Virus record (IMG/VR): IMGVR_UViG_3300045988_018139
Length of the DNA: 45,605 bases
From: a virus
Direction: 5' to 3' (one strand)
This document shows, piece after piece, positions 3,655 through 45,605 of this stretch. The position numbers were made by a program, and so were the translations under genes. The notes under the pieces were generated by a model. It was not told the DNA's origin. It searched no databases and was given only the letters and a program-made list of their open reading frames with translations. Each line of letters begins with the position of its first letter. Positions within the stretch are counted from its first letter, which is position 1.

Positions 3655-4335
3655 TCACTCCAAAATGCTTGTCCAGTATTCAAAGCGGGCCATGACCTTG
3701 CGGGAGTGTTCGGTGCTGTATGTACCAGACGCCCACAGAGATTGAGCGCCGGAGGGGCCGCAGTTGTAGGCCATGACGGCCAGCTCCGGCTCCCCGTAGG
3801 CGGTGAGGTAGTCACCCAGCAGCATGACACCGGCCTCAATGTTCCCGGTGTAGGTCATGGGGTCAATGCCTTGCTCCAAAAACCACCCATGATTGACCTG
3901 GTTGATTTGCATGAGGCCGTAGTCATTGGTGCCACTTGTGGCATCCGGGTCAAAACGGCTTTCCACGTCCGCCACGGCCAGGGCCAGAGCGTAGGGGACG
4001 CCGTACTCCTCGCAGCAGGCCTGCATGGTTTCCTGGAGGTCGTAGGCCAGGAGGTTGCCGTCCGTCACAATGTCATCCCGCCAGAGGACCGGCTCCTCCG
4101 TGGGAGCCGGTGTTGCCGTGGGGGTTTCCGTGGCCTCTGGGGTCGGGGTGGTGCTCTCCAGCACCGGCTCCGGGAGGGTCATGGCGGCCTGGCTGGTGTG
4201 CCTGCCAGTAAAGAAACCGGCGGCGAAAATGCCAGCGCACACCAGCGCCAGCACAATGACCGGGCCGTAGTTCGGGCGGCGTTTCCGCCTGGCCCGGTGA
4301 CGGGGGGCTCTCTGGCCATATTCACAGATGGTCAT
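3655..4335 (-). CDS. Membrane-anchored lytic transglycosylase (SLT domain)
   Basis: SLT catalytic signature VADVESRFDP...NDYGLMQIN is present. There is an N-terminal basic stretch plus a TM segment (PVIVLALVCAGIFAAGFF) and a Thr/Pro linker. The ATG at 4333-4335 is preceded by AAGGGGTG. Confidence 0.8.
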   Translation of the reverse strand: MTICEYGQRAPRHRARRKRRPNYGPVIVLALVCAGIFAAGFFTGRHTSQAAMTLPEPVLESTTPTPEATETPTATPAPTEEPVLWRDDIVTDGNLLAYDLQETMQACCEEYGVPYALALAVADVESRFDPDATSGTNDYGLMQINQVNHGWFLEQGIDPMTYTGNIEAGVMLLGDYLTAYGEPELAVMAYNCGPSGAQSLWASGTYSTEHSRKVMARFEYWTSILE

Positions 4336-4347
4336 GGAGTTCACCCC

Positions 4348-4932
4348 TTACTTGCCGATGCGGCGGAAAAGCTCCTCCGCCAGCTCACGGGTGCTGTACT
4401 GCTCCAGCGGGTTGCCCTCAACCTCCACGGTGTAATTGGAGGGGAGGAGGAAAGCGGGGCGGGACCCGAAGGTGAGGGTGCAGAGGCGGCCGCTGATGCT
4501 GCCATCGGAGTACAGCCCCATGACCCATGTGTCATCCTCATTGACCTTGGGGGTGCTCCAGGGCGTCACGGACCACTCAAAGCGCTCCGGGATGGGGATG
4601 ATGTCCGCATACTTGCGGAGCTCGTCCAGGGACAGCGGGGCCACCTTGCACTCACAGGTGCCGTACTCCTTAGAGCCGTTGAGGGCGGTGAGGTCCACGG
4701 TGCGGGTGATGACCTCATCGGGGTTGCCGTCCGTGAGGCTCCGCAGGTAGGGGCCGTTGAGGTGGGCCCGCAGGGAGCTGGATGCAAAGTTGTTGTCAGA
4801 GCCAAAGGCGTGGCTCATCTGCTCCAGGTGCAGGAGCAGGGTGCCGTCCTTGCGGTGCTCCAGCACCAGGCAGGGCTCCCCGTGGTAGTCCACGGTTTTG
4901 CCGGGGGCGATGTTCAAAAGAGCGGTTTTCAT
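4348..4932 (-). CDS. Stand-alone DGR target protein (DUF6273/C-type-lectin-like variable domain), carries VR2
   Basis: AAGGAGG lies 8 nt before the ATG at 4930-4932. The C-terminal WSTP...GLYSDGSISGRLCTLTFGSRPAFLLPS is paralogous to the VR1 region of 11491..13299. The nucleotide match to TR is described under the VR2 feature. Confidence 0.8.
   Translation of the reverse strand: MKTALLNIAPGKTVDYHGEPCLVLEHRKDGTLLLHLEQMSHAFGSDNNFASSSLRAHLNGPYLRSLTDGNPDEVITRTVDLTALNGSKEYGTCECKVAPLSLDELRKYADIIPIPERFEWSVTPWSTPKVNEDDTWVMGLYSDGSISGRLCTLTFGSRPAFLLPSNYTVEVEGNPLEQYSTRELAEELFRRIGK
4453..4519 (-). repeat. DGR variable region 2 (VR2), matches TR 14574-14640
   Basis: Hand alignment covers 67 bp with 15 mismatches. 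Every mismatch is at a plus-strand T of TR, which is A on the coding strand. It shares the GC-rich 3' end GGGTCCCGCCCCGCT with TR and VR1. Confidence 0.8.
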
Positions 4933-4945
4933 GGTGGTGTCCTCC

Positions 4946-5152
4946 TTACTGTTCGGTTTCGTCCTCATCATCGTCCCCGGAGATGTCAATGAGGTTTTCC
5001 GCCTGGACGATGATTTCAGAAACGATTTGACGGATGGGCAGGCCGGTCTTGAAACGGAGCCGCCGGACCACTTTTTCCGCCTCCGGGGTGAGCCGGACGG
5101 TGCCGATGCACTCATCGGAGCTTGTCCGGGTCCTCAAAATAATGGGTTTCAT
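4946..5152 (-). CDS. Small ribbon-helix-helix-like (CopG/Arc-type) protein with acidic tail (68 aa)
   Basis: AAGGAGG precedes the ATG at 5150-5152. The segment TVRLTPEAEKVVRRLRFKTGLPIRQIVSEII looks like beta-alpha-alpha. The gene is hidden inside a longer spurious listed ORF. Confidence 0.55.
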   Translation of the reverse strand: MKPIILRTRTSSDECIGTVRLTPEAEKVVRRLRFKTGLPIRQIVSEIIVQAENLIDISGDDDEDETEQ

Positions 5153-5201: not shown

Positions 5202-5444
5202 TCAGCGGCTCTGCTTTCCCCTCCGCTCAAGTTCCTGTTGCATCCTGAGCTGGGCAAGGGTAGCATCATACTGCAATCGCTGGTCCGGGAGGCGGACCCC
5301 AGAACGGCCCCGGCGCAGTTCCGTGTAGAGCGTGGACAGCGGCACATCAAGGGCCTCTGCCATGTCTTTGACCGTTTTGCCTTGCTCCCAAAGCTCCTGG
5401 AGTTCCTGCCGGGCCTGGAGCGTTGCGAAAGCGTAGCTCGCCAT
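5202..5444 (-). CDS. Small helix-turn-helix DNA-binding protein (80 aa)
   Basis: The segment GKTVKDMAEALDVPLSTLYTELRRG is HTH-like, resembling IS30/sigma region-4 type. AAGGAAG RBS is present. Confidence 0.6.
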   Translation of the reverse strand: MASYAFATLQARQELQELWEQGKTVKDMAEALDVPLSTLYTELRRGRSGVRLPDQRLQYDATLAQLRMQQELERRGKQSR

Positions 5445-5510
5445 GTTTTCACTTCCTTTCCTATGGGGTCAGGTTGTCTGGTGGGCTCCGCCTGAGCGGA
5501 GCCCGTTGAC

Positions 5511-6125: not shown

Positions 6126-6192
6126 GGTGCATCCTCCTTGATATAAAAGAAAAAAGATTAGCTCGCTGGCACCTTTCGGTGCCTGCAAACTA

Positions 6193-6221
6193 ATCTTAGT
6201 GCTTACCTGGCTAAAAGTCAA
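6193..6221 (-). promoter_or_regulatory. Putative sigma70-type promoter TTGACT-17-TAAGAT for 5511..6125
   Basis: The hexamers are read on the minus strand: -35 at 6216-6221 and -10 at 6193-6198, with a 17-nt spacer. Confidence 0.35.
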
Positions 6222-6367: not shown

Positions 6368-7408
6368 TCAGGCGGTCAAGAGCTCTTTCTCAAAGAGCAT
6401 GGCCGCCGATTTCCACCCCAGCAGCTTGCGGGGGTAGTTGTTCACCCACCTCTCTGCCGCCCTCACCTCCTCCGGCTTTACGGTGTCAAAGCTGGTGCCC
6501 TTGGGGAAAAACCGTCTAATCAGCCGGTTCATGTTCTCATTGGACCCCCGCTCAAAGGCGCTGTATGGGTGGCAGAAAAACACAATGGTCCGCTTGCCCT
6601 TGCGCCGGTGGGCGGCCTCGATACCCTCGAAGTCTTGAAATTCGCAGCCGTTGTCCACCGTGATGCTCTTGAACAGCTTATAGAACAACTTGCCAAAACG
6701 GCGCTCCAGGCTGTTGATGGCCTTGACCACGCTGGCCGCCGTGTGGTCCTCCAGGAGCATCACAATGCCCATGCGGGTCCGGCGCTCGGTGAGGACCAGC
6801 AGGGCTTTTTTGGAGCCCTTGCATCCCATGATACTGTCCATCTCCCAATGGCCGAAACTGCCCCGGCCTTTGACCTCCTGGGGGCGGTTCTCAATGCTTT
6901 TCCCGTGGGAGCTCCGGGCGGCCTGCTGTCTGCTTTTGGCGGAGTAGTGGCGGCGGCCCTTATTGTGCAGATGCTCTGGGGTGAGGTGGAGGAACACGTC
7001 CCCACGGTAGATGTAATTATAGAGCGTGTTCTCACATATCACGGTGTTATAAACCTCACCGTTGTTGCGGATTTCCGCAAGGGCGGCTCCGGGGGCAAAG
7101 CCTTGAACCATGACCAGCTCCTCCAGCCGTTGGACCAGGGCGTGGTCTTTGCCAATCTTGAGGTCCCGGCCTTTTTCTTTGAGAAAATCCCGGTATTTTC
7201 GCTCTGCCACTTCCGGGCAGTAAACCTCAATAAACTCATATTCGGAGGTTTGCTGGATGCAGAGGCCCCGGTTGATTTCATAGTAGATGGACCGCTCACA
7301 CTTGCCCAGAGCGCTGGCAATGGCGGTTTTGGTAAAGCCTTTTTTGAGCATCCGCTCCAGGGTCAGGCGTTGGTCCCAGGTGAAATGCTTGGCGTCTTTA
7401 TGGTTCAT
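6368..7408 (-). CDS. IS30-family DDE transposase/integrase (346 aa)
   Basis: N-terminal HTH (GFTKTAIASALGKCERSIYYEINRG) and catalytic-core segments GHWEMDSI...ITVDNGCEF...RGSNENMNRLIRRFFPKG are typical of IS30 transposases. GGAGGTG RBS is present. Confidence 0.9.
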   Translation of the reverse strand: MNHKDAKHFTWDQRLTLERMLKKGFTKTAIASALGKCERSIYYEINRGLCIQQTSEYEFIEVYCPEVAERKYRDFLKEKGRDLKIGKDHALVQRLEELVMVQGFAPGAALAEIRNNGEVYNTVICENTLYNYIYRGDVFLHLTPEHLHNKGRRHYSAKSRQQAARSSHGKSIENRPQEVKGRGSFGHWEMDSIMGCKGSKKALLVLTERRTRMGIVMLLEDHTAASVVKAINSLERRFGKLFYKLFKSITVDNGCEFQDFEGIEAAHRRKGKRTIVFFCHPYSAFERGSNENMNRLIRRFFPKGTSFDTVKPEEVRAAERWVNNYPRKLLGWKSAAMLFEKELLTA

Positions 7409-8502: not shown

Positions 8503-8895
8503 ATGTTTGGCAAAAAGAAAAAGGAGCTCCCGGCGGGGGCCCGCATGATGCACTATGAGGGCTTGCGTGGATTTAACCAGGACAGCCCGTGTTTTATGGA
8601 GCAGACGGAGACCGGGCTGGTGTTCCGGCAGGTGAATGGCCCGGCAGCCACCTTGCCGCTGGAGAAATTGACGGGCCTGGAGCAGATGCCGGAGCGCAAT
8701 TTCATGGCCCGGTATCACGGCACAGCGGCCACCACGGCCCACGGGGCGGCGGTCAAGTGGTTTGCTGTGTTTCACTATACAGCCCAGGAGGGTGAGCGGA
8801 TGCTGGCCTTTTGGTACACAGAGCCCAAAACCGGCAACGCTCTCCGGGAGCTTGCGGCGCAGGTTGGAGCGTCTGCCCAGGACTACACCCTGTAA
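8503..8895 (+). CDS. Hypothetical protein (130 aa), possibly a small PH-like/beta-rich domain
   Basis: AGGAGG lies 8 nt before the ATG at 8503. No confident family assignment. Confidence 0.6.
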   Translation: MFGKKKKELPAGARMMHYEGLRGFNQDSPCFMEQTETGLVFRQVNGPAATLPLEKLTGLEQMPERNFMARYHGTAATTAHGAAVKWFAVFHYTAQEGERMLAFWYTEPKTGNALRELAAQVGASAQDYTL

Positions 8896-9283: not shown

Positions 9284-10321
9284 TTACCCCACCAGAGTGA
9301 GGTCTTTGCTGTTGACGGCGGCGGTCACCACGCCGTTCTGGCCGATAACCACACGGGAGCCGTCCACCTGCATGACGGTGTAGGTGCCGGTGTAGACGAA
9401 AGAGGCCAGGGAGCCGCCGGTGTAGGTCTTGGCCCCTTTGTTGACCTTGACCTTGGAGCCCACGGTGATGGCCCCCTCCACCTGGATGTCCGCAGCATCC
9501 ACCCAGCCGTAGACGGTGGAGCCGCCGCCGGTGACTTTGATGAGGTGATAGGGGTGCTTGGCGTTCTTGGCAATGGCCGTGACCTTGGCCTTGCCGGGCT
9601 TGCAAGCGGAGCCGTTGGTGGCGTTGGAGCTCACATAGTGCTTGGTGCCGGTAAAGGTCACGGTGTCACCCACAGCGGCCTCCAGGGCGCTCCCAGAGGC
9701 CGGGGTGTCTTGGGACCCGCCCCCGGTGTTTCCGCCCGTGGAGGCCCCCGTGTAGTCCACATAGGGCAGCTTGCCGTGCTTGGTCCACCGGCGGGTGTTG
9801 TAACCAGACTTGCTGCCGATGTTGCCGACGGCGGTGATTTGGACCTTGTTCTCCCACTTGGGGGTACACTCCACCGCCAGGCCGTCCCCAATGTAGATGC
9901 CAATATGGCCGGACATCCAGACGGCCTCACCGATGACCATATCAGCCCAGCCGGTGGTGCTCACCCCGGTGCATTTGGTTATCATGGTATCAGCGCCGAT
10001 GTCCGGCACGCCGTTGACGGCGTAGCTGGCCCCGCCGTAGGTCTTGGCGGCGTTGCCGTTCCAGCCCCAGAGGATGCCTTTGATGAGGCAGACGCAATCA
10101 AAGCCATACACGGGCGGGCTCTGGTTGGCGGCGGCCTTAATCATGGCCGTGCGGGTGGCATCTTTGTTGTAGGAGTGGTTGTTGCAGTAGCGGCTCACGT
10201 TGGAGCCAGTCAGAGGTGCCCCAAAGCACCCCATGACATACAGCGTCTTGTAGTTCTTGGCGATGTCCACGGCCTTGTTGACAAGCTCCTGGGCAGTCAT
10301 TTTGCTCATACTATGTACCAT
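9284..10321 (-). CDS. Endolysin: NlpC/P60-type cysteine peptidase with two C-terminal SH3-like wall-binding repeats
   Basis: Catalytic Cys context FDCVCLIKG and His context GHIGIYIGDG are present. Two repeats of about 65 aa (…VTFTGTKHYV…GWVDAADI; …VKVNKGAKTY…AAVNSKDL) follow. The start may be the second ATG at 10309. Confidence 0.75.
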   Translation of the reverse strand: MVHSMSKMTAQELVNKAVDIAKNYKTLYVMGCFGAPLTGSNVSRYCNNHSYNKDATRTAMIKAAANQSPPVYGFDCVCLIKGILWGWNGNAAKTYGGASYAVNGVPDIGADTMITKCTGVSTTGWADMVIGEAVWMSGHIGIYIGDGLAVECTPKWENKVQITAVGNIGSKSGYNTRRWTKHGKLPYVDYTGASTGGNTGGGSQDTPASGSALEAAVGDTVTFTGTKHYVSSNATNGSACKPGKAKVTAIAKNAKHPYHLIKVTGGGSTVYGWVDAADIQVEGAITVGSKVKVNKGAKTYTGGSLASFVYTGTYTVMQVDGSRVVIGQNGVVTAAVNSKDLTLVG

Positions 10322-11032: not shown

Positions 11033-11491
11033 TTACTCGCTGGCCTCAGTCCAGCCATAGACGCCGGGCTCCCAGACATTGCCGTCAAGGTCAGAGGTCC
11101 AATGCTTGCTGTTATGGCTCACCTTGGCCCCTGCTGCATAGGCATCATGGGACCCCAGCGGCTGGCTCCAGGCGGGCCACTCCTCCGCAGGGTCACTGGT
11201 GATGGACCACAGGGAGGCGGCATTGGGCGGCTCCCATCCCGTCTGGGAGGTGTGGGCCTGCACGCAGCGGTAGAGCTTGCCCTCATACTGCCGGAGCTGG
11301 CCCACGGTGTAGTTGACATTGGCCGCCCATTCGGAAAAGAGGCTGGCTTGTTCGGATGCGGTAATGTCGTCAATGCTCCCGGCCTCTGCCAGCACCACAA
11401 AGGCGATGGCGGCGGCGTCATTGCGCTGCTGTTCGTAGCGCTGGGCCTCATGGAGTTCCTTGAGGCTGGTGGTCTTGGTCTTGATAGCCAT
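11033..11491 (-). CDS. Protein with two CBM5/12-like carbohydrate-binding repeats
   Basis: YTVGQLRQYEGKLYRCVQAHTSQTGWEPPNAASLW and AGAKVSHNSKHWTSDLDGNVWEPG resemble chitin-binding type-3/CBM5_12 repeats. A TAATG overlap links it to the upstream gene. Confidence 0.65.
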   Translation of the reverse strand: MAIKTKTTSLKELHEAQRYEQQRNDAAAIAFVVLAEAGSIDDITASEQASLFSEWAANVNYTVGQLRQYEGKLYRCVQAHTSQTGWEPPNAASLWSITSDPAEEWPAWSQPLGSHDAYAAGAKVSHNSKHWTSDLDGNVWEPGVYGWTEASE

Positions 11492-13299
11492 TACTGAAAA
11501 GCACCTCCGATGTTGGAAATGTAGCCGCCGGTGTTGCTGGACCCCCGGCTCACAGTGACCTTGAAATTAAAGGCAAAGCCGTTGGTGGCGGTCTGGTTGG
11601 TGAAAACGTGGTTGTTGCCGTTCTTCACGTCCTGGGTGGCGTCCTCCCAGACGGGCTCCGTGTCGTTGGCGTTGTTGGTCACCAGCACCTCCAGGTCAGC
11701 ATCCGCCGGGATGGAGCCCAGGATGTTGAGCACCATGACCGTGATGGTGTCATCGGCGTCCAGGGGCTCCGCCAGGGTGATGGAGGCCTCATAGACTGCC
11801 TTGGTAAAGGTCACGGTGTAGGGGGTGCTGTCCGCTTTGCCGTCATTGGCCACCACCTTGATGGTGTGCTGGCCGTTGAGAACCTTTTGCCAGTTGGCGG
11901 CGGTGACACACTGGACGGTGTTGCTCTGCTCCAGGGTGGCGGTATAGGTCCGCTTGAGCACGTCATCCAGATACTCTTTGACCGTCACGGTGTCCCCGTC
12001 TGCATCGTCCACGGAGTAGGTCAGGTCAAAGCCCTCCGTCTTGGTCCCCAAATCGGAGCCGGAGGCCGTGGAGCTGGTGATGGTGGGGAGGTTGTTGTTG
12101 TCAACCGTCCGGGTTTCGCTGGTCACATAGGAGCTGGTGGAGTTGTAGGTGTCGTAGGCCCGGACACGATAGGCCACCGTGTTCCACCCGGAGGTGATGG
12201 TGTCCGTGTAGGCCAGGCCGCTGCCCTTGTAAATCTGGGTCCAGGAGCCGCCGTCCACTTGCCGCTCCAGCTCATAGCCGCTGAGGTTGCCGTCACTGTC
12301 AGAGGCCTGGGTCCAGGAGATGGCCAGGTTGCTGCCGCCACGGACAACAGCGGGGACGGTGATGCTGCCGGGAGCGCCGGGGGCCCGGTTGTTCGTGACC
12401 GTCACGGTGCTGCTGGTACGCCAGCCGCTCTCAAGCCCGGCGCTGTCATAGGCCTTGACCCGGTAGGCCACGCTTTCTGTGCCAAAGGCCACGGTGTTGC
12501 TGGTGCTGGTGGCGCTGCCCTGGTAGATTTGGGACCAGGAGCCGCCGTCCGTCTGGCGCTCTACAATGTAGCCCTCAAGGTTGTCCTCAGCGTCCGTGGA
12601 GGCCGCCCAGCTCACTGTGATGCTGGTGCCGCCGTTGATGCTCTGGGGGACGGAAATGCTGGCGGGCGTAGACGGGGCGGTGTTCTGAAACACAGAGCCG
12701 TCATCGCTCACATAGAGGGAGGAGGGGAGAGTGAAAGCGGGGCGGGACCCGTCGGTGCCGGTGCAGTAGTTGTCGTAGATGTTGCCATTGGAGTACAGCC
12801 TCCAGGCGACGCCGGTGCTGTTCGTGTACGGGGAGCGGGTCCATTGAGTGGTGGCGCTGCCCCCTTGATAGGCGATTTGTAAAGTGGACGCAATGGGCAG
12901 GGCGGAGCCCTCCACGTTGGCGTAGGTGTGAGATTGCCCCAGCTCGGTGAGGGACAGCAGGAAAACAGCATCGGACCGGGTGGTGACGGTGTTGTTACCG
13001 TTGCCCGGCGTGTAGCGGTAGGTGGTGGTGCCCATCGCCTCCTGGATGTCGGCGTCCAGCAGCGCTTTATAGGTGCTGTTCAGCCAGGACCGCATGGTGC
13101 AGCTTGCCCAGGCGTTCACGTTGGAGCTGTGCCAGGCCCGCTGGTCATACACGTCCTTGCGGACCACCAGGGTCCTCCCGGCTCCGTTGAGCGATTGCTC
13201 ATAGTTGTGGCAGGCAACATAGAAGTCAACCAGCGTGCCGTTTTCTTTCAGCTTGATAATACTGCCGGTTGCCTTATTGCCCAGGGTGGTTGTGGCCAT
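11491..13299 (-). CDS. DGR target 1: fibre/receptor-binding-like protein (DUF6273/CLec-like variable domain, two FN3-like repeats, C-terminal domain)
   Basis: VR1 lies at codons 155-188. Two FN3-like repeats of about 95 aa follow (…ITVSWAASTDAEDNLEGYIVERQTDGGSW… and …LAISWTQASDSDGNLSGYELERQVDGGSW…). AAGGAGG RBS is present, and a TAATG overlap links it to the RT gene. Confidence 0.85.
   Translation of the reverse strand: MATTTLGNKATGSIIKLKENGTLVDFYVACHNYEQSLNGAGRTLVVRKDVYDQRAWHSSNVNAWASCTMRSWLNSTYKALLDADIQEAMGTTTYRYTPGNGNNTVTTRSDAVFLLSLTELGQSHTYANVEGSALPIASTLQIAYQGGSATTQWTRSPYTNSTGVAWRLYSNGNIYDNYCTGTDGSRPAFTLPSSLYVSDDGSVFQNTAPSTPASISVPQSINGGTSITVSWAASTDAEDNLEGYIVERQTDGGSWSQIYQGSATSTSNTVAFGTESVAYRVKAYDSAGLESGWRTSSTVTVTNNRAPGAPGSITVPAVVRGGSNLAISWTQASDSDGNLSGYELERQVDGGSWTQIYKGSGLAYTDTITSGWNTVAYRVRAYDTYNSTSSYVTSETRTVDNNNLPTITSSTASGSDLGTKTEGFDLTYSVDDADGDTVTVKEYLDDVLKRTYTATLEQSNTVQCVTAANWQKVLNGQHTIKVVANDGKADSTPYTVTFTKAVYEASITLAEPLDADDTITVMVLNILGSIPADADLEVLVTNNANDTEPVWEDATQDVKNGNNHVFTNQTATNGFAFNFKVTVSRGSSNTGGYISNIGGAFQ
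12736..12835 (-). repeat. DGR variable region 1 (VR1), matches TR 14574-14673
   Basis: Hand alignment covers 100 bp with 13 mismatches. All are at plus-strand T of TR, which is coding-strand A and mostly falls in AAC codons. Confidence 0.9.
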
Positions 13300-14327
13300 T
13301 AGATTTCCTCCTTTAGAATGTTCTGCACACGGTCCCGCACCTGCTGGCGCAGGGACCAGGTGTTGCCGTGAGCGGCGTGGGCGTCCCAGGCCTGCCAGCT
13401 TTGCAGGATTTTCTCACGGGTCACAAGGCCCGCTGGATAGTCCTGCTCCCACCGGCGGAGCTTGGAGCGCATACGCTTGATGCTGCTGTGCCGCAGCTTG
13501 CGGATGACCTTGCCCTCCTCGGTCAGATAGGTGTGAAAGCCCAGAAAATCAATCCCATTGCGGATGGGGAAAATCTGGGTTTTCTCATTGAGCTCCAGCC
13601 CCAGGCTGGCCATAAAGGCCCGGATTTCCTTGAGGCAAAATTGCAAGTAGGCCTTGTCCGGGTGGATGAGGAAAAAGTCATCCATGTAACGGCCATACCA
13701 GCGGATGCGGAGCTTTTCTTTGACAAAGTGGTCAAATTCATCCAGGAACAGCAGGGCAAAAAGCTGGCTGGTTTGATACCCCAGCGGCAGCCCGTCCGTG
13801 CTGTCTATGTAGGTACACAGCAGGTCATAGACAATGGGCTCAAGGTCCAGCTTTTTGAGCTTTTCCTTGAGCCGGTCATGGTCTATGGAGGCGAAAAAGT
13901 GCCGCACATCTGCCTTGAGGACCCAGCCCTCCGATGTGCGGTATTTGTTCCAGTATTCCGTGAAAAATCCACGCAGCCGGTCCAGGCCGAAGTGGAGCCC
14001 TTTGCCTTTCTGGGATGCGTAGTTGTCCAGGATGAAACTGTTGGTAATCCGCTCATAGATGAGGTTATCCACCAATGCGTGCTGGACCACTTTGTCAACA
14101 AAAGCCGGGGCCTGCACAAGCCTTTTCTTTGGCTCGTAGGCATAGAACACCCGGAACAGCCCCGGCCTGTAAATCTTGGTTTGCAGGATGTAGACCAGGT
14201 TGACGATGTTGGCCAGCAGGTGGACCTCATAGTGTGCGGTGGCGGCCCTGGAGCGCTTGCCCCGCCTGGCCGCCAAATAGGCCTTGTAGAGCACCGCAAA
14301 GGTGCATATCTGTGAAAATTTAAGCAC
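13299..14327 (-). CDS. DGR reverse transcriptase
   Basis: RT motifs are present, including RYMDDF (YxDD box) and the DGR-typical LPLGYQTSQ ([I/L]GxxxSQ). TR is immediately upstream and avd is adjacent. The listed start is GTG. Confidence 0.9.
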   Translation of the reverse strand: MLKFSQICTFAVLYKAYLAARRGKRSRAATAHYEVHLLANIVNLVYILQTKIYRPGLFRVFYAYEPKKRLVQAPAFVDKVVQHALVDNLIYERITNSFILDNYASQKGKGLHFGLDRLRGFFTEYWNKYRTSEGWVLKADVRHFFASIDHDRLKEKLKKLDLEPIVYDLLCTYIDSTDGLPLGYQTSQLFALLFLDEFDHFVKEKLRIRWYGRYMDDFFLIHPDKAYLQFCLKEIRAFMASLGLELNEKTQIFPIRNGIDFLGFHTYLTEEGKVIRKLRHSSIKRMRSKLRRWEQDYPAGLVTREKILQSWQAWDAHAAHGNTWSLRQQVRDRVQNILKEEI

Positions 14328-14573
14328 GGGTTTTGCACCCCTGAGAAAACATACGGGCGGCCCCCTGTCAGTCCGGCGGCGGGCCTCCCTCTCCTTGTGC
14401 GCCGTGTAGGTGCCGCAGGGACAGGACCAGTAGCACCCCGCCGCCTCATAGTGCGGTGGGGTGCATCAGCGCAATGTATTTGCCTTGAGCTCAAGGCTGG
14501 ATGTGACCTCCTTTGATGTGATGGATAGCGCTGCTTTCGGCTTTGGGCCTACTCGGTCGGGCCTTACCATCAG

Positions 14574-14673
14574 AGCGGGGCGGGACCCGTTGGTGTTGGT
14601 GCAGTTGTTGTTGTTGATGTTGCCATTGGAGTTCAGCCTCCAGGCGTTGTTGGTGTTGTTCGTGTTCGGGGAG
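14574..14673 (-). repeat. DGR template repeat (TR), non-coding
   Basis: On the minus strand it is rich in AAC triplets (…AACACGAACAACACCAACAAC…AACATCAACAACAACAAC…). It matches VR1 and VR2 except at adenines. It lies between avd and the RT. Confidence 0.9.
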
Positions 14674-14733: not shown

Positions 14734-15282
14734 TTAATGGGGCCGCAGGGCCTCCGCCATTTGCAGGGCCATTTGCCCCATCTTGGCAAGCTCCTGGGCC
14801 GCTTTGGCCTCCCGGAGAGCGGCGGCACGGTTGCCGTCCGATTTTCTCCAGTTGAAGGCCTTTTGCCGGACCGGGCGCACCAGCTCCGCCCAATAGTGGC
14901 ATTGGTCGCCGGTGATGTATTTCTTTTTGAAACTGAGGTTGATGAGCTGGCCCATGGTTTCACACTCAATGAGCACCCCGTCCAGGTCCTTGAGCCGTTC
15001 CTCATACTCGGTTTCAAAATAGCGCCCATTGGCGGCCACGCAGCCCTTGAGGATGCGGATGGCACAGCCCTGGAGCTCGGCACACAGGTGGAAAGCCTGG
15101 CTCTTTGGAAAATGCGGCTTTCCCACGTCCTGCACTTTCTCATAGAGGGTTTTCTCCACCATCTGGCCGTTTTCCATCACATAGGCCTTTGTGCGCCTGT
15201 ATTCCGGGTCTTTCTGCTTGACCCGCTGGATGGTGTACTCCAGCAAATCAGAGGCAAGAGGGATGATGTCATAGCTTGGCAT
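14734..15282 (-). CDS. avd: DGR accessory variability determinant (Avd-like four-helix-bundle protein)
   Basis: Its position directly upstream of TR-RT fits Avd. The helical protein has an Avd-like FPKSQAFHLCAELQGCAIRILKGCVAAN segment and a basic C-terminal segment (NWRKSDGNR). At 182 aa it is longer than classical Avd. Confidence 0.7.
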   Translation of the reverse strand: MPSYDIIPLASDLLEYTIQRVKQKDPEYRRTKAYVMENGQMVEKTLYEKVQDVGKPHFPKSQAFHLCAELQGCAIRILKGCVAANGRYFETEYEERLKDLDGVLIECETMGQLINLSFKKKYITGDQCHYWAELVRPVRQKAFNWRKSDGNRAAALREAKAAQELAKMGQMALQMAEALRPH

Positions 15283-16019
15283 TAAAACTCAATCCTCGCA
15301 TACGTTTCATTCCAGACGCCCGTGACCACCAGCCCGGTGAGGGTTTCAAAGGTCACCTCAAAGCTGTTGCCGGTCACGTTGGTGCCATATTTCAGCTCAA
15401 GGGTGGAGAGGCGGCTGTCTATGCCCGCCATGGTCACACGGATGTCTGGGTGGGAGTTGGTGTCGGTGTCGTGTTCGGAAACGGCGTCCACAATGTCCTG
15501 GCGGATGTCGGCATGGCTTGCGGGGTCCGTGTTGTGTTCGGCAATGGCCGCCTCCAGGTCCTCCGGGCTCACCGTGTCCAGGGACGCCGTGACGGTAAAC
15601 TCCAGCACGGAGCTGTCCACCACAACGATGTGCATGAGCATGGTGAGCCGCCCGTCCACGCCGGTGGAGATTGCCACCTTTTCCGTGTCCGGGGTGTTGC
15701 AGATGGCAATGAGGGTGCCGTCCTCATCAAAGAGGCCCATTTCACGGACAATGAAGTTGCCCACGCTGTCATCAATGATGATTTTCACGTCCATCATGTT
15801 GGGCACCGTGGGGTTTTGCTCCGCAGACACGATGGGACCCCGCCACAGCTCCCGCACAAGCTCAGTCTGCTCCGTGCTGGGCACATAGTAGCTGCCCCCG
15901 CCGTCACCGGCGGCGGCCTGGGTGATTTTCAGCTTGGTCCCTGCCAAAATGCAGTTGGTAATGAGGGTGGCCCCTGCCGTGGTGATTTTAGTGCCGTATT
16001 TTCTCTCCTGGTCAGGCAT
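15282..16019 (-). CDS. Tail fibre protein (N-terminal collar-type domain plus His-box fibre repeats)
   Basis: N-terminus TKITTAGATLITNCILAGTKLKITQAAAGDGGG is present. The motif EHxTDxxSHxDIR occurs twice. The ATG at 16017-16019 overlaps the upstream stop. Confidence 0.7.
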   Translation of the reverse strand: MPDQERKYGTKITTAGATLITNCILAGTKLKITQAAAGDGGGSYYVPSTEQTELVRELWRGPIVSAEQNPTVPNMMDVKIIIDDSVGNFIVREMGLFDEDGTLIAICNTPDTEKVAISTGVDGRLTMLMHIVVVDSSVLEFTVTASLDTVSPEDLEAAIAEHNTDPASHADIRQDIVDAVSEHDTDTNSHPDIRVTMAGIDSRLSTLELKYGTNVTGNSFEVTFETLTGLVVTGVWNETYARIEF

Positions 16020-16653
16020 TTTCGCTTTCCTCCTGTTCGTATGGATAAATCTCAAGTTTGGCGTGCCATTCAATGGGCCCGGCCCCGATGACGCCGCCGG
16101 AGCTCTCCAGCTCATTGGTGAGCATCGGCCACAGGTCCATGTGCAGGGAGCGCTCCGTGTAGGCCCCCAGCCGGACGCCGCCGGCGGATTGCAAAAGGGC
16201 CGTCATCATAATCAGGATGTTGGCGGGGCGCACCGTCAGCAGCATGTCAAGGATTTCCTCCGCCATGCGGCCCGGCTCCGGCAGCACCGTGTAGTCAAGC
16301 TGGATGTCCAGGGTGTAGTCCTGGAGAGATACGGCATGACCATCCGGGCCACATAGGCCGTCCAGCCAGTTCCGCAGCCAGCGCATGGTGTAGGGCAATT
16401 CCAAATTCCACTTGGCTTTGATGCGGGCCTTGCGGGCCTCCAGGGTGTCTGTGTCTTTGGGATAGAGCCGCAGCTCTTGCTCCCACACAGCCACGCCGTT
16501 CTCATCGGCGTCCTCCAGGAATTGATTGGCCAGCACCAGGGCCATGGCATCCCAGGCCAGGGAGATTTCCGGCTCATTGGCCCCGTTGATGGTCTGAAAC
16601 TCCAGCGCCTCCCGGAGCACCGGGGGGAGATAGTCTAAAAGGCGTCTATCCAT
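16012..16653 (-). CDS. XkdU/DUF2313-like baseplate/tail protein
   Basis: N-terminus LLDYLPPVLREALEFQTI and the position after baseplate J fit this family. Confidence 0.65.
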   Translation of the reverse strand: MDRRLLDYLPPVLREALEFQTINGANEPEISLAWDAMALVLANQFLEDADENGVAVWEQELRLYPKDTDTLEARKARIKAKWNLELPYTMRWLRNWLDGLCGPDGHAVSLQDYTLDIQLDYTVLPEPGRMAEEILDMLLTVRPANILIMMTALLQSAGGVRLGAYTERSLHMDLWPMLTNELESSGGVIGAGPIEWHAKLEIYPYEQEESENA

Positions 16654-43623: not shown

Positions 43624-45605
43624 TTAGTCTTTGGTAAAGTAGTAGCCCACCCAGCCAGCCGCCTTGAGCGGCAGGTCAGGGGCCCAGGGGACCGGCTCCC
43701 CCATGATGGAGCAGACGGTGCCCAGCATGGCGTCCTCCGTGTCCCAGGGGGCCACATCAATGACCACCTCGTCATGGACGTGGAACACCACCGGGAGCCC
43801 GGCGGCCTCCAGCCGGTCAATGGACAGGGCCAGGCAGTCACGGGCAATGGCCTGGACGCAGTTCTCCACCAGCTTGCCGCCGTAGGTTTCAATGCGTTTC
43901 CACCGTTTGGTTTTCTGGTCCATGCCCATGTAGGAGATGGAGGGCCGCCCCCATTCGTTCTGGCCAATGCTGGGGCTGATATAGTAGAGCTTGCGGTCAG
44001 AGGGGAGCCGGATGGTGAGGCAGTCCACGCCGTTGTCATAGTCATACTCACGGGCCAGCAGCAGGCCGTTGACGCCCACGCTGCCGCCCTCGGTGATGAC
44101 CTGGACGGCGGCATTGTCCATGGAATACCACAGGTCACGGATGCGCTTGTTGGCCTCCCGCCAGCGGCTCACGATGTCCGGCAGCTCCTCCTCAGTGAGC
44201 CCCATGTCCAGGGCTCCCATGGTGATGAGGGCCCCGGTGCTGCCCTGGTAGCCCAGGGCCAGCTCTGCCACCTTGCCCTTTTGCCGGAGCGCATACTCTG
44301 GATTGCCCTTTTTGATGAGCTCCAGAGGCACCCCAAACATCTGGGAGGCAGAGGCCTCATAGATTTTGCCGTGGGTGCGGAACACCTCCAGCCGCCATTG
44401 TTCCTTGGCCAGCCATGAGATGACACGGGCCTCAATGGCGGAAAAGTCGGCGTCAATCAGTACATGGCCCTCCGGGGCCACAAAGGCCGTGCGGATGAGC
44501 TGGCTGAGGGTGTCGGGCACGCTGCCATAGATGAGCCGCAGGGCATCCAGCTTGCGGGCCTTGACCAGCTCACGGGCCAGGTCCAGCGGCTCCGTGTAGG
44601 TCCGGGGCAGGTTTTGCACCTGCACCAGCCGCCCGGCCCAGCGCCCGGTCCTGTTCGCTCCGTAAAACTGGAGCAGGCCCCGGACACGTCCATCCGCACA
44701 GACAGCGGCCTCAATGGCGTCATATTTCTTGGTGGAGGTCTTGCCCAGCTCTTGGCGTATCTCCAGCATCCGGCTCACCTGGGGGCTGTTATCGTCCCGG
44801 CCCAGCAGGCGGGCAACGGTGTCTTTTCTCAGGTCGGCCAGCTCCTCACCAATTTCCTCCTGGAGCCAGGTGGTGAGCTGGGCCACGCTGTTGGGGTTGG
44901 ACAGGCCGGAGAGCTGCATGGCCTCCGCCATGAGCGTCTGGCGCACGGTGTCCCCCAGATAGAGGGCCCCGGTGACCAGCTCCAGGTCCACGGCCACGCC
45001 CCTGGCGTTGATGATGAGGTCGGTTTCCCATTGCTTTTGCACCCAATCCGGGACCGGGAAAGCGGAGAGCCGCCGCTCAATCTCCATTTCCGTCACCACG
45101 TCCTGCTTGCAGTATTCTTTGAAAAGCTCCCATTTGGCGGGGTCATGCTGGGGCAGGTTGCGGGTCCTCTGGCCGTTGGCCTTGGAGGGCTTGCAGGGGA
45201 TGCAGAAATAGCGGATGAGCGCCTTGCCGGTGTTGAGCTTTTGCTTGTCCTGGGGGAGCCCCAGGGCCTTGCCGGTGGCGTCCAGGCCTGCCGTGTAGCC
45301 GCAATAGAGGCCGTGGAACATGGTGCAGCGCCATTGGTCCGGCGGCAGGGTGCCCATGAATTTGGAGAGGCAGCCCCACTCAAAGGGGGCGTTGTAGGCG
45401 TGCTTGATGTACTCCGGGCTGGTGATGGCCTGGACCAGCCACGGGGGGAGCCGTTCCCCCCGTGCCAGGTCGATGATTTCAACAGGCGCACCATCCAGGC
45501 TGAACGCAAAGAGCAGGATTTCAAAGTCCGGGCTCTGGATGTATTTCTGGGCACCGGCCTTTGCCAGCGGCACGCTGGAATAGGTTTCAAGGTCAATGCT
45601 GAGAT
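43624..45605 (-). CDS. Family-A DNA polymerase with 3'-5' exonuclease domain (gene completed at 78..84 across the circular junction, about 662 aa)
   Basis: The ExoI motif IDLETYS is seen only when the junction is read through. Also present are RTGRWAGRLVQVQNLP (motif A region) and HVHDEVV (motif C). Confidence 0.9.
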   Translation of the reverse strand, partial: LSIDLETYSSVPLAKAGAQKYIQSPDFEILLFAFSLDGAPVEIIDLARGERLPPWLVQAITSPEYIKHAYNAPFEWGCLSKFMGTLPPDQWRCTMFHGLYCGYTAGLDATGKALGLPQDKQKLNTGKALIRYFCIPCKPSKANGQRTRNLPQHDPAKWELFKEYCKQDVVTEMEIERRLSAFPVPDWVQKQWETDLIINARGVAVDLELVTGALYLGDTVRQTLMAEAMQLSGLSNPNSVAQLTTWLQEEIGEELADLRKDTVARLLGRDDNSPQVSRMLEIRQELGKTSTKKYDAIEAAVCADGRVRGLLQFYGANRTGRWAGRLVQVQNLPRTYTEPLDLARELVKARKLDALRLIYGSVPDTLSQLIRTAFVAPEGHVLIDADFSAIEARVISWLAKEQWRLEVFRTHGKIYEASASQMFGVPLELIKKGNPEYALRQKGKVAELALGYQGSTGALITMGALDMGLTEEELPDIVSRWREANKRIRDLWYSMDNAAVQVITEGGSVGVNGLLLAREYDYDNGVDCLTIRLPSDRKLYYISPSIGQNEWGRPSISYMGMDQKTKRWKRIETYGGKLVENCVQAIARDCLALSIDRLEAAGLPVVFHVHDEVVIDVAPWDTEDAMLGTVCSIMGEPVPWAPDLPLKAAGWVGYYFTKD

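Follow-up and report, generated by a model that had tools for sequence, protein, structure and literature searches.

A small DUF6273 protein encoded among putative early genes as a second, probably active target of a phage DGR

The viral sequence analyzed here, a stretch of 45,605 nt (IMG/VR record IMGVR_UViG_3300045988_018139) that we refer to as the window, carries a single DGR with two targets. The stretch at 4453..4519 is very probably an active second variable repeat (VR2) of this DGR, situated in a gene for a small protein of the target2 family; taken as a whole, this is the best explanation of the data. To our knowledge, DGRs are the only natural systems of targeted protein hypermutation in bacteria and phages, and phage DGRs have been read almost entirely as host-range switching devices. 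The window adds a well-documented and demonstrably active one-TR, two-target DGR in a gut phage of a new Oscillospiraceae-type lineage.

VR2 (4453..4519, minus strand) encodes residues 139-160 of a 194-aa protein and lies 10,055 nt from the template repeat (TR; 14574..14673, minus strand). Positions 14574-14640 of the TR template VR2, while all 100 nt template VR1. On the coding (minus) strand, VR2 4519..4453 and TR 14640..14574 align without gaps over 67 nt, of which 52 are identical and 15 mismatched. Every mismatch is at a TR adenine (15 of the 22 adenines are substituted, seven by G, five by T, and three by C), and all 45 non-adenine TR positions are kept identical in VR2. These values agree with a preliminary description of the window, which had reported a 67-bp match with 15 mismatches, all at TR adenines; its coordinates and counts hold, and our computed alignment contains no non-adenine mismatch within the 67 nt. 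The first such mismatch is at position 4520, so the strict extent of VR2 is 67 nt; the equivalent adenine-only run between VR1 and TR is 100 nt. An adenine-tolerant scan with TR on both strands of the whole window returned TR itself, VR1 (12736-12835), and VR2, and no third target.

The two proteins that carry VR1 and VR2 are paralogous, which raises the question of whether the likeness between TR and VR2 could come from chance or from two DUF6273 domains being ordinary paralogs, without retrohoming. However, the proteins are just 33% identical overall, yet the non-adenine TR positions are identical without exception (45/45). The probability that 15 mismatches would all fall by chance on the 22 adenine positions among 67 is 4.9e-10. 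Moreover, the TR is non-coding, lying between avd and the reverse transcriptase (RT) gene. We consider an origin by paralogy or chance extremely unlikely, as it is already refuted by these data.

The 3' end of VR2 is IMH-like (4438..4467, minus strand) and consists of the GC block GGGTCCCGCCCCGCT (4453-4467) followed by the 15 nt TTCCTCCTCCCCTCC (4438-4452). TR, VR1, and VR2 have the same GC block, which is also kept downstream of VR2 in 19 related loci. The 15 nt that follow it were described earlier as common to both VRs and absent from TR; indeed, TTCCTCCTCCCCTCC in VR2 and TTCACTCTCCCCTCC in VR1 are identical at 12 of 15 positions, but this likeness is inseparable from coding constraint, since the same 15 nt encode a conserved F-(L/T)-L-P-S strand in both DUF6273 domains. 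The IMH* at the 3' end of TR (14559..14588, minus strand) has the same GC block and then diverges into the unrelated CTGATGGTAAGGCCC. The IMH of the VRs thus differs from the IMH* of the TR as expected of a DGR, though the difference is confounded by the coding constraint. A hairpin or cruciform 3' of the VR is a known feature of the BPP-1 DGR. Here, a 10-bp stem is possible 3' of VR2 and is weakly conserved in two related loci (L016 and L017), and DNA folding of the downstream regions gave z = -2.8 for VR1, z = -0.75 for VR2 (a 91-nt fold), and z = +0.6 for TR. The VR2 value is not significant. The TR/VR relation supports VR2 as a true second variable region of this one DGR and as a functional target of homing.

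The DGR appears complete, with an RT, a putative Avd-like protein, and the TR in between. The RT (13299..14327, minus strand; 342 aa; Pfam RVT_1, 6.3e-19) fits the DGR type ([LIV]GxxxSQ and YxDD), as LGYQTSQ and YMDD were both found. Directly upstream of TR is the Avd-like accessory protein (14734..15282, minus strand; 182 aa), for which the scores against Pfam bAvd (22.5 bits, cut-off 40) and NCBIfam DivGenRetAVD (26.4 bits, cut-off 80) are sub-threshold but concordant. VR1 (12736..12835, minus strand) spans 100 nt with 13 mismatches to TR, 13/13 at TR adenines, of which this stretch has 34. It lies in the N-terminal DUF6273 domain (Pfam, 5.2e-25) of target 1, the 602-aa tentaclin-type protein (11491..13299, minus strand) that continues into Ig/FN3-like repeats. 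The FN3 modules ascribed to target 1 in the preliminary description drew no Pfam FN3 call when residues 198-602 were searched; over its full length, the protein is 55% identical to the Hoc-like tentaclin of FP_Brigit, and it is 45% identical to nd4_tgt1.

To assess variation of VR2 in nature, we used 120 homologous sequences (83-100% identity). Entropy exceeded 2 bits at residues 141, 143, 145, 147-150, 152, 153, and 155, all of which correspond to AAC or AAT codons in TR, save residue 152 (ACC). Beyond these, only residue 193 at the C-terminus was above 2 bits. Residues 146 and 154 (ATC/ACC) were moderately variable, and substitutions at the variable sites of the 120 homologs were mainly Y, S, G, D, and N. 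In two related loci (L001 and L004), divergence is 1.1-1.6% outside VR2 versus 21-24% inside, and the VR2 differences fall at TR adenines in 13/14 and 15/16 cases. Two others (L010 and L017) have TR, VR1, and VR2 in the same layout as the window. Compared with the window TR, the TR of L017, a diverged relative, has 8-9 non-adenine changes specific to its lineage, and its own VR2 mirrors them (two 5'-edge mismatches excepted), a case of concerted evolution of template and target. Locus L014 shows an assembly bubble, with one variant of VR2 on either side of an N. For L002, a 511-kb scaffold with a different DGR layout, a TR serving VR2 was not found within +/-10 kb. Altogether, these comparisons show that VR2 is actively diversified in natural populations.

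Alternatively, VR2 could be a fossil, formerly targeted, in which diversification has ceased; this would fit the report that no read-level VR variation was seen for the phages Lelie or CP11 in culture (Gulyaeva 2024, PMC11792537). However, hypervariability among the 120 homologs is limited to codons that hold TR adenines, VR2 diverges by 21-24% while its flanks differ by ~1%, and the non-adenine bases of VR2 co-evolve with the cognate TR. A fossil VR2 is therefore very unlikely, being refuted at the population level, although the individual genome of the window may differ if its RT or Avd is defective.

The VR2 gene (4348..4932, minus strand) has a ribosome-binding site, AAGGAGGA, ahead of its ATG, and 120/120 close homologs are 193-201 aa long with the same kind of start. 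Its 194-aa product had been described as a DUF6273/C-lec-like paralog of the N-terminal domain of target 1 that lacks an obvious signal peptide. BLASTP bears out the relationship (E=1e-12, 33% identity), and the protein has no transmembrane segment or signal peptide (maximum Kyte-Doolittle 19-residue mean, 0.76). It matches phrog_9958 (1.5e-39, over residues 1-193) and scores just below the cut-off for Pfam DUF6273 (22.8 bits). Over its full length, it is 33% identical to nd4_tgt2 (E=6e-28), and tblastn with the protein matches nd12, Toutatis, Lelie, and Brigit. Based on these matches, we assign the VR2 protein to the published small DUF6273 "target2" family.

Structure prediction, which had been suggested in the preliminary description, gave a DUF6273/C-lec-like fold with a pLDDT of 96.4 when AF2 was supplied with 84 diverse family representatives; a shallow alignment of 36 sequences from two subfamilies had produced an unusable model (pLDDT 46). 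In the model, the VR residues lie on strands 146-150 and 154-157, which form a beta-hairpin, and a C-terminal helix spans residues 181-193. The 10-12 DGR-randomized residues are predicted to form the surface beta-hairpin and an adjacent loop, a putative programmable ligand-binding site. Foldseek matched the model to DUF6273 phage proteins at probability 1.0 and also to DUF1566 phage proteins. The 50 best Foldseek PDB hits did not include Mtd, and the family profile had no match among PDB sequences at E<=1. The C-terminal 40 residues have no Pfam match. The helix motif L..YST.EL..E..RR is kept in many family members, while in some the helix is replaced by zinc-ribbon-like or other short tails. 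A six-frame search of the window for the tail motif returned the VR2 protein alone. Among 10 longer, multi-domain members of the family, Pfam found DUF6273 alone, plus one DUF5983. The VR2 protein is not itself a tentaclin, as it has 194 aa, one domain, and no Ig domains (the tentaclin is target 1), and it lacks the traits of Mtd, having no N-terminal beta-prism or beta-sandwich and a gene outside the tail module. Neither PADLOC nor NCBIfam gave a defense or anti-defense match for the VR2 protein and its small neighbors.

The gene neighborhood agrees with the earlier placement of the VR2 gene at a distance from the virion module, in a region of regulatory, early, and replication genes. The gene is flanked by gaps of only 12-13 nt. 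On its upstream side, at a distance of 13 nt, is a 68-aa protein (4946..5152, minus strand) that is a conserved neighbor in relatives, preceded by an 80-aa HTH_38 DNA-binding protein (5202..5444, minus strand; Pfam HTH_38, 3.6e-07; phrog_11420, "DNA binding protein"). On its downstream side, 12 nt past the stop, starts the gene for a membrane-anchored SLT lytic transglycosylase (3655..4335, minus strand). The run of RHH regulator, VR2 gene, and SLT gene proposed previously holds for the SLT, which is well matched (Pfam SLT, 8.6e-20) and has a transmembrane segment at residues 26-44. The 68-aa protein has no Pfam, PHROG, or NCBIfam match, and the label RHH is thus a by-eye reading. Relatives of the window keep the order HTH_38, 68-aa protein, target, SLT, DUF2800, ssDNA-binding protein, DNA polymerase A. 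These relatives occur in Angelakisella, Dysosmobacter, and other Oscillospiraceae-type bacteria. Since all phage genes but one are on one strand, the term "early" is applied here from the neighbors and from consensus promoter and terminator matches only.

Upstream of the putative VR2-gene operon, at 6147..6221 (minus strand), are a promoter-like site (6221..6193) and an overlapping 27-nt imperfect palindrome (6147-6173 / 6178-6204), which we infer may play a regulatory role at a module boundary. Contigs or homology blocks of relatives start or stop at 6204-6207, and the starts of many contigs lie 0.2-1.9 kb upstream of the VR2 gene, with boundaries that cluster at 6204-6207 and about 5460. A position of the VR2 gene at a prophage end was considered and rejected, because L002 is continuous across the boundaries and an Angelakisella prophage remnant starts at 5460. 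Given these two observations, the boundaries are better read as those of mosaic modules or IS30-like elements than as a proven attachment site.

The genomic position of the small target recurs beyond the window. It lies among early, regulatory, or replication genes in six phages (the window, nd4, nd12, FP_Brigit, FP_Toutatis, and Lelie) that represent five gene contexts, as Lelie and Toutatis share one, and it is never in the tail or head module. Cultured Faecalibacterium strains carry FP_Brigit, Toutatis, and Lelie as prophages, and the induction of Lelie has been achieved in experiments.

In the mechanism that we propose, the avd-TR-RT unit (13.3-15.3 kb) would make adenine-mutagenized cDNA from one TR, and this cDNA would home into either of two targets with the same GC-rich IMH end. 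VR1 would receive 100 nt of TR, in the 602-aa tentaclin-type protein beside the RT. VR2 would receive the 3'-most 67 nt of TR, 10 kb away, in the 194-aa protein, whose predicted single C-type-lectin-like domain is followed by a conserved 13-residue C-terminal helix. The VR2 gene may be co-transcribed with the early regulators, the SLT gene, and the replication genes, and its product may act inside the cell or at the envelope and not in virion receptor binding; we hold this to be about evenly balanced. As a tentative generalization, small DUF6273 proteins that serve as targets in tentaclin-type phage DGRs may be early-expressed, hypervariable binders that are cytoplasmic or envelope-proximal, and not virion receptor-binding proteins. 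Such a role would account for the location of the gene, which in unrelated lineages is found directly after the lysis-lysogeny switch or in the company of replication genes, as well as for the absence of a virion-anchoring domain in the small target. The label "non-structural" for the VR2 protein is provisional and comes only from the position of its gene and the lack of a recognizable anchoring domain.

Two other roles for the small target have to be weighed against this proposal. The protein could be a virion-associated, Mtd-like accessory receptor-binding protein that docks to the tail or head via its terminal helix, such that variation alters host range or adhesion, as hypothesized by Baykov 2023 (PMC10743442) and Egorov 2024 (10.1101/2024.10.15.618418). 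The predicted C-lec-type fold with a DGR-randomized surface hairpin would resemble known phage receptor-binding proteins, and the well-characterized targets of phage DGRs, e.g., BPP-1 Mtd, are of that kind (PMC10743442). The variable sites favor Tyr, Ser, Asp, Gly, and Asn, and nd4-like VRs likewise prefer aromatic residues, Ser, Asp, and Arg (PMC10743442). Also, the C-terminal helix motif that is common in the family could be a docking peptide; however, family members with zinc-ribbon-like or other short tails lack such a helix. The protein has neither an Mtd-like trimerization or beta-prism domain nor a tentaclin-like Ig anchor, and the location of the gene among early, regulatory, and replication genes in all six phages and five contexts, never in a tail or head module, also argues against a virion role. 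A full-text literature search for mass-spectrometry data on FP_Toutatis and FP_Brigit found no virion proteomics for these two phages. On balance, we regard a virion-associated protein as possible, though short of probable.

A different role would be that of a moron-like gene, made in the lysogen and serving in superinfection exclusion or another host benefit. Consistent with this, the membrane-anchored SLT adjoins the VR2 gene in the window lineage, an intact copy of the gene persists in an 8-kb prophage remnant of Angelakisella massiliensis with no TR or RT within 10 kb, and even DGR-less Toutatis-like phages have the small target among their core genes (10.1101/2024.10.15.618418). However, the SLT adjacency is not kept in nd4, Brigit, or Toutatis, the VR2 protein has no export signal, and PADLOC gave no match for it. 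In addition, the VR2 gene appears to sit on the lytic-direction transcript, since a Cro-like gene lies upstream of it, as does a consensus promoter directed away from the putative repressor gene, the sole oppositely oriented gene. Expression in the lysogen for host benefit is thus rather unlikely. In every lineage that was checked, the small second target has putative early genes around it. If the protein acts inside the cell, then proteins of intracellular conflict would also be diversified by phage DGRs, an idea so far suggested for Quimbyvirus only, and if the early-expressed binder that we propose is real, it would be a diversified intracellular recognition module directed against host defenses or competing phages. 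If it is instead a virion protein, then a receptor-binding module is consistently encoded outside the structural module.

The preliminary description had regarded a phage DGR with two such targets as unusual and a candidate for undescribed biology. This does not stand, as the same layout has been published for nd4, nd12, Lelie, CP11, and FP_Toutatis. A tentaclin is paired with a small, DUF6273-only target2 in nd4 and nd12 (Baykov 2023, PMC10743442). Like the window protein, nd4_tgt2 and nd12_tgt2 are small and DUF6273-only, with a C-lec-like fold, a flanking helix, and a VR hairpin near the 3' end of the gene. In these phages as in the window, the shorter VR2 draws on the 3' part of a TR that also serves the tentaclin, and the target2 gene is among early genes, downstream of an IS30-type rve gene. 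The lineages differ, in that only 6% of a 5-kb query from the window matches nd4 DNA. The nd4 and nd12 proteins are also longer (234 and 294 aa versus 194 aa), the gene after the target is exonuclease-like rather than a membrane-anchored SLT, and the tail motif YSTRELAEELFRRI of the window protein is not evident in the nd4_tgt2 alignment.

The same pairing is found in Lelie and CP11 (Gulyaeva 2024, PMC11792537), and in FP_Toutatis a second VR is located in a core gene, 17,480 nt from TR (Egorov 2024, bioRxiv 10.1101/2024.10.15.618418). Toutatis gp24, Lelie orf58, and the CP11 "small DGR target" resemble the window in having a remote second VR in a small DUF6273 core-gene protein, with a Hoc-like tentaclin beside the RT as target 1 and the layout Avd, TR, RT. 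They differ in sequence (28% identity to the window protein), in the distance between VR2 and TR (17.5 kb in Toutatis versus 10 kb in the window), and in host, which is Faecalibacterium for these phages and Angelakisella, Dysosmobacter, and other Oscillospiraceae-type bacteria for the relatives of the window. The closest annotated homolog of the window protein is FP_Brigit gp06 (YP_009797027.1; 36.5% identity over 100% of the length), which shares its C-terminal tail motif and whose gene comes third in the early operon, after cro. We found that gp06 is itself a DGR target, whereas the original description of FP_Brigit gave the Hoc-like DGR target only (PMC5883640). The end of the Brigit prophage has a serine or tyrosine-type "integrase" and no rve gene.

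More distant systems share parts of this arrangement. BPP-1 Mtd has a C-lec-type fold and a C-terminal VR, its TR is rich in AAC and carries an IMH*, and its IMH is GC-rich, as in the window; however, the tail module of BPP-1 encodes Mtd as the single target, a 381-aa trimer that has a beta-prism at its N-terminus as well as a beta-sandwich (PMC10743442). The Quimbyvirus DGR has been proposed to hit one structural and one putatively non-structural protein (Benler 2021, PMC8008677). Compared by description, Quimbyvirus ORF80/84 are like the window targets in that one DGR serves a presumed structural and a presumed non-structural C-lec target, the latter remote from the structural module and, in Quimbyvirus, within a defense-related island (PMC8008677). 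Quimbyvirus differs in being a Bacteroides phage with an apparently unrelated protein, whose gene is encoded on the opposite strand and surrounded by methyltransferase and nuclease genes. Altogether, phages that combine a tentaclin with a small, DUF6273-only target2 are already known, and the window is a further example of this kind in a new Oscillospiraceae-type phage lineage.

The window (59.5% G+C) carries nearly all of its genes on the minus strand. Its positions 1-77 are identical to 45529-45605, so it represents a circularly closed phage genome assembly of ~45,528 bp, and its "two arms" are contiguous: polymerase A (43624-45573) extends the replication module, which begins downstream of the VR2 gene. 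Read along the minus strand, the DGR region begins with a tail-collar fibre gene (15282-16115), followed by an Avd-like gene (14734-15282), the non-coding template repeat (TR, 14574-14673), the RT gene (13299-14327; RVT_1, 6.3e-19; motifs LGYQTSQ and YMDD), and target 1 (11491-13299), a 602-aa tentaclin-type protein with VR1 within its N-terminal DUF6273 domain. An adenine-tolerant scan of both strands found exactly two copies of TR besides TR itself, VR1 (12736-12835) and VR2 (4453-4519).

VR2 aligns with TR 14574-14640 over 67 nt without gaps, and all 15 mismatches fall at TR adenines, in agreement with the preliminary description. Fifteen of the 22 TR adenines in this stretch are substituted; the probability that 15 mismatches would all fall on those 22 positions by chance is 4.9e-10. 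The first non-adenine mismatch beyond VR2 is at base 4520. TR, VR1, and VR2 all end in the GC block GGGTCCCGCCCCGCT. Over the following 15 nt, VR1 and VR2 are identical at 12 positions and TR is unrelated, a pattern already noted and read as the asymmetry between the 3' end element of the VRs (IMH) and its TR counterpart (IMH*). The same 15 nt code for a conserved F-x-L-P-S strand in both target proteins; thus, the IMH reading is consistent with the sequence, yet not independent of coding constraint. Homing of adenine-mutagenised cDNA is the established DGR mechanism, and by it cDNA from one TR would reach either IMH-bearing VR. VR2 can take only the 3' 67 nt of TR, so the 5' crossover would have to fall within a few bases of codon 139-141.

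We assessed VR2 activity in nature by comparing homologues and related loci. From 5.8 billion proteins, we retrieved 1,693 relatives of the VR2 protein, the 194-aa product of 4348-4932 (minus strand). The best 120 of the 1,693 are 83-100% identical and, when aligned, near-invariant except at residues 141, 143, 145, 147-150, 152, 153, and 155 (entropy 2.0-3.1 bits, 8-12 residue types), where the spectrum is mainly Y, S, G, D, and N. These high-entropy residues are AAC or AAT codons in TR, except 152 (ACC); residues 146 and 154, with TR codons ATC/ACC, vary moderately among these 120, and of the remaining residues, only 193, at the C-terminal end, exceeds 2 bits. Over ~12 kb, two related loci, L001 and L004, diverge from the window at 1.1-1.6% of positions, against 21-24% inside VR2, where 13 of 14 and 15 of 16 differences lie at TR adenines.

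Two IMG/VR loci, L010 and L017, have TR, VR1, and VR2 in the same layout as the window. L017 VR1 (L017:3474 region) differs from L017 TR at only five adenines, all in the 3' third, and L017 VR2 at 10, which places two targets at unequal distance from the template in one genome. Relative to the window TR, L017 TR has 8-9 non-adenine changes (TTG, ACC, GTC, AAT, GGGTCTCGTCCC), and L017 VR2 shares them, bar two mismatches at the 5' edge of the repeat, and so matches the TR of its own genome rather than the window TR. This agreement is concerted evolution by continuing TR-to-VR transfer. In another IMG/VR contig (L014:4608-4700), two unlike VR2 versions are joined around an N; this assembly-bubble signature is an artefact, and it points to a heterogeneous VR2 in that sample. 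Altogether, these comparisons indicate that VR2 is active. A fossil VR2 is accordingly rejected, as are ordinary paralogy and chance as sources of the likeness between TR and VR2. The preliminary description had reasoned that VR2 would be a fossil if population reads lacked A-site-restricted variation there while VR1 varied; the comparative tests gave VR2 variation nearly confined to TR adenines instead.

The start codon of the VR2 gene is an ATG with AAGGAGGA ahead of it. Farther upstream, an in-frame ATG (5115) overlaps the real 68-aa gene, which is read in a different frame, and no homologue starts there. Pfam identifies only DUF6273 in the protein (22.8 bits, below the cut-off of 23.5), and PHROGs matches its full length to phrog_9958 ("unknown function," 1.5e-39). 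By BLASTP, it matches target 1 (E=1e-12, 33% identity over residues 47-174), which makes the two proteins paralogous. Phmmer, run exhaustively over 1.84 billion cluster representatives, yielded 795 relatives, mostly 180-240 aa, many of which share the C-terminal tail L..(Y/F)ST.EL..E..RR (window 4351-4395, residues 176-194). This tail is kept in many small DUF6273 proteins that are otherwise divergent (P0122-P0257), down to 32-36% identity; other relatives have a zinc-ribbon-like tail, a DUF5983 tail, other tails, or an N-terminal coiled coil. The conserved C-terminal helix motif of the small-target subfamily is a natural candidate docking element. No signal peptide was found among the inspected relatives, and the VR2 protein contains no hydrophobic segment (maximum 19-residue Kyte-Doolittle mean 0.76).

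AlphaFold2 gave a pLDDT of 46 with a shallow alignment and 96.4 (pTM 0.85) with 84 diverse relatives. The model comprises a beta-rich globular domain (1-170) and a terminal helix (181-193), with VR-encoded residues in the loop after strand 136-140 and in the hairpin 146-150/154-157. Foldseek matched it in BFVD to DUF6273 phage proteins (probability 1.0, TM 0.55-0.74) and DUF1566 proteins. The sole significant PDB match was 9qa6, an IgA peptidase domain of Thomasclavelia ramosa (E=4e-5, TM 0.60), so a DUF6273-like fold occurs in a secreted gut-bacterial enzyme that binds a host glycoprotein. Classical C-type lectin domains were weak PDB matches (probability ~0.2), and Mtd was absent from the top 50. 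We regard the VR2 protein as a programmable ligand-binding module.

The VR2 gene begins 13 nt after the 68-aa gene, with an HTH_38 gene farther upstream, and ends 12 nt before a gene for a membrane-anchored SLT transglycosylase (3655-4335, minus strand; SLT, 8.6e-20; transmembrane segment at residues 26-44). This SLT gene sits in the early/replication operon, outside the lysis and tail modules. Close relatives keep it, but it is missing beside the small target in the phages nd4, FP_Brigit, and FP_Toutatis. Downstream of the VR2 gene lie genes for a DUF2800/PD-(D/E)XK nuclease, an Enc34-type ssDNA-binding protein, DNA polymerase A, a methylase, ThyX, and a VapE primase. Upstream are an endolysin (9284-10321) and a holin-like gene; the only plus-strand gene (8503-8895), with divergent promoter-like sites, which we take to be a putative repressor; a Cro-type HTH gene behind a perfect sigma-70 consensus promoter (7767-7739); an IS30-type rve gene (6368-7408, minus strand) for an rve + HTH_38 DDE product (phrog_4646, "transposase"); terminator-like hairpins; and a promoter-like site (6147-6221) overlapping a 27-nt imperfect palindrome (6147-6173/6178-6204). 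This last site coincides precisely with a module boundary (6204-6207), immediately ahead of a gene for a 204-aa product: L001 and the homology to a further locus, L006, both start at 6207, and in Angelakisella the rve copy stops at 6204. Candidate roles are an early operator, an attachment site, or the terminus of an IS30-like rve module. The rve gene stands where a temperate phage would have its integrase, and nd4 and nd12 share this arrangement. Many metagenomic contigs break beside it, suggesting either a repeated element in host genomes or the prophage end. From gene order and promoter-like sites, we infer that the VR2 gene would be transcribed in the lytic direction; the genetic switch lies on one side of it and the replication genes on the other.

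Early placement recurs. In all annotated relatives examined, the small target has early, regulatory, or replication genes as neighbours and is always outside the structural module. In Brigit, the order is integrase and repressor, then cro, regulator, gp06, exonucleases, and RecT; in nd4 and nd12, the small target follows the IS30-type rve gene amid small early genes and SSB, DnaC, or exonuclease genes; in Toutatis and Lelie, it is amid methyltransferases, prohibitin, regulators, and a replication initiator. The accessible text of the published descriptions carries no comment on this placement. Brigit gp06, a 203-aa early-operon protein (L021:3948-4559), is a second DGR target. The Brigit TR (L024:15407-15488; record about 45406-45487) lies partly within the annotated Avd CDS, at its 3' end, and mismatches the gp06 VR only at TR adenines over ~75 nt; both contain the block GGCATCCGCCCCGCT, followed by CTGA in TR and TTGA in VR, and 111 gp06 homologues are hypervariable only in that VR stretch. 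The original FP_Brigit description names the Hoc-like target alone (PMC5883640).

In two other relatives, no template for VR2 was found nearby. Angelakisella massiliensis Marseille-P3217T (NZ_LT629945.1, L030:9482-17500) has an 8-kb prophage remnant between rnf-like genes and leuS, which retains the genes for HTH_38, the 68-aa protein, SLT, DUF2800, and polymerase A, followed by a truncated rve gene. Its small-target homologue is intact (85% identity) with a diversified VR, and no TR or RT lies within 10 kb; this copy is a "frozen" VR2 in a cultured isolate. The 511-kb scaffold L002 (ERZ28617497 scaffold_4) has another DGR layout, in which a 900-aa Big_3 + DUF6273 target is followed by a 152-aa protein and then a 376-aa RT. 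A search of +/-10 kb gave no TR that matches the L002 VR2, and phage genes run continuously across the rve gene.

Judging by synteny alone, we consider it roughly an even call that the VR2 protein acts in the infected cell as an early protein, and somewhat likelier than a role as a virion receptor-binding protein. The latter is the published view, an Mtd-like role having been proposed for such systems by Baykov et al. 2023 (PMC10743442), and we treat it as a tentative alternative. The recurrent early-gene position of small targets, the tight coupling of the VR2 gene to regulators and replication genes, and the lack of any anchoring or oligomerisation domain favour the infected-cell reading. 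Defence and anti-defence models gave no match to the VR2 protein. The reading in the preliminary description is partly supported: the second target that it proposed holds up in the comparative tests as real and active, and its label of "non-structural" is plausible.

The preliminary description also named this target its best candidate for undescribed biology, but the pattern has been published. The DGRs of gut phages nd4 and nd12 diversify a tentaclin, which combines an N-terminal DUF6273/C-lec domain with Ig domains, as well as a "target2" that is small, has DUF6273 only, and carries a shorter VR2 (PMC10743442); for the Faecalibacterium phages Lelie and CP11, Gulyaeva et al. 2024 (PMC11792537) describe DUF6273 targets that are "large and small," with adenine-specific population-level variation at both VRs of CP11, and call the function unclear; Egorov et al. 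2024 (bioRxiv 10.1101/2024.10.15.618418) place the second VR of FP_Toutatis 17,480 nt from TR, in a core gene found in 98.8% of 173 related phages; and a non-structural second target was earlier proposed for Quimbyvirus (Benler et al. 2021, PMC8008677). By tblastn and BLASTP, the VR2 protein is homologous to FP_Brigit gp06 (36.5% identity, 100% of length), nd4_tgt2 (33%, E=6e-28), nd12_tgt2 (34%), and Toutatis gp24 and Lelie orf58 (28%), while target 1 shares 55% identity over its full length with the Brigit Hoc-like tentaclin and 45% with nd4_tgt1. Relatives of the window lineage occur in Angelakisella, Dysosmobacter, and other Oscillospiraceae-type genomes. A specialist would readily recognise a tentaclin/target2 system here. 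Altogether, the published pattern and the homology to small targets place the window system within an already described kind.
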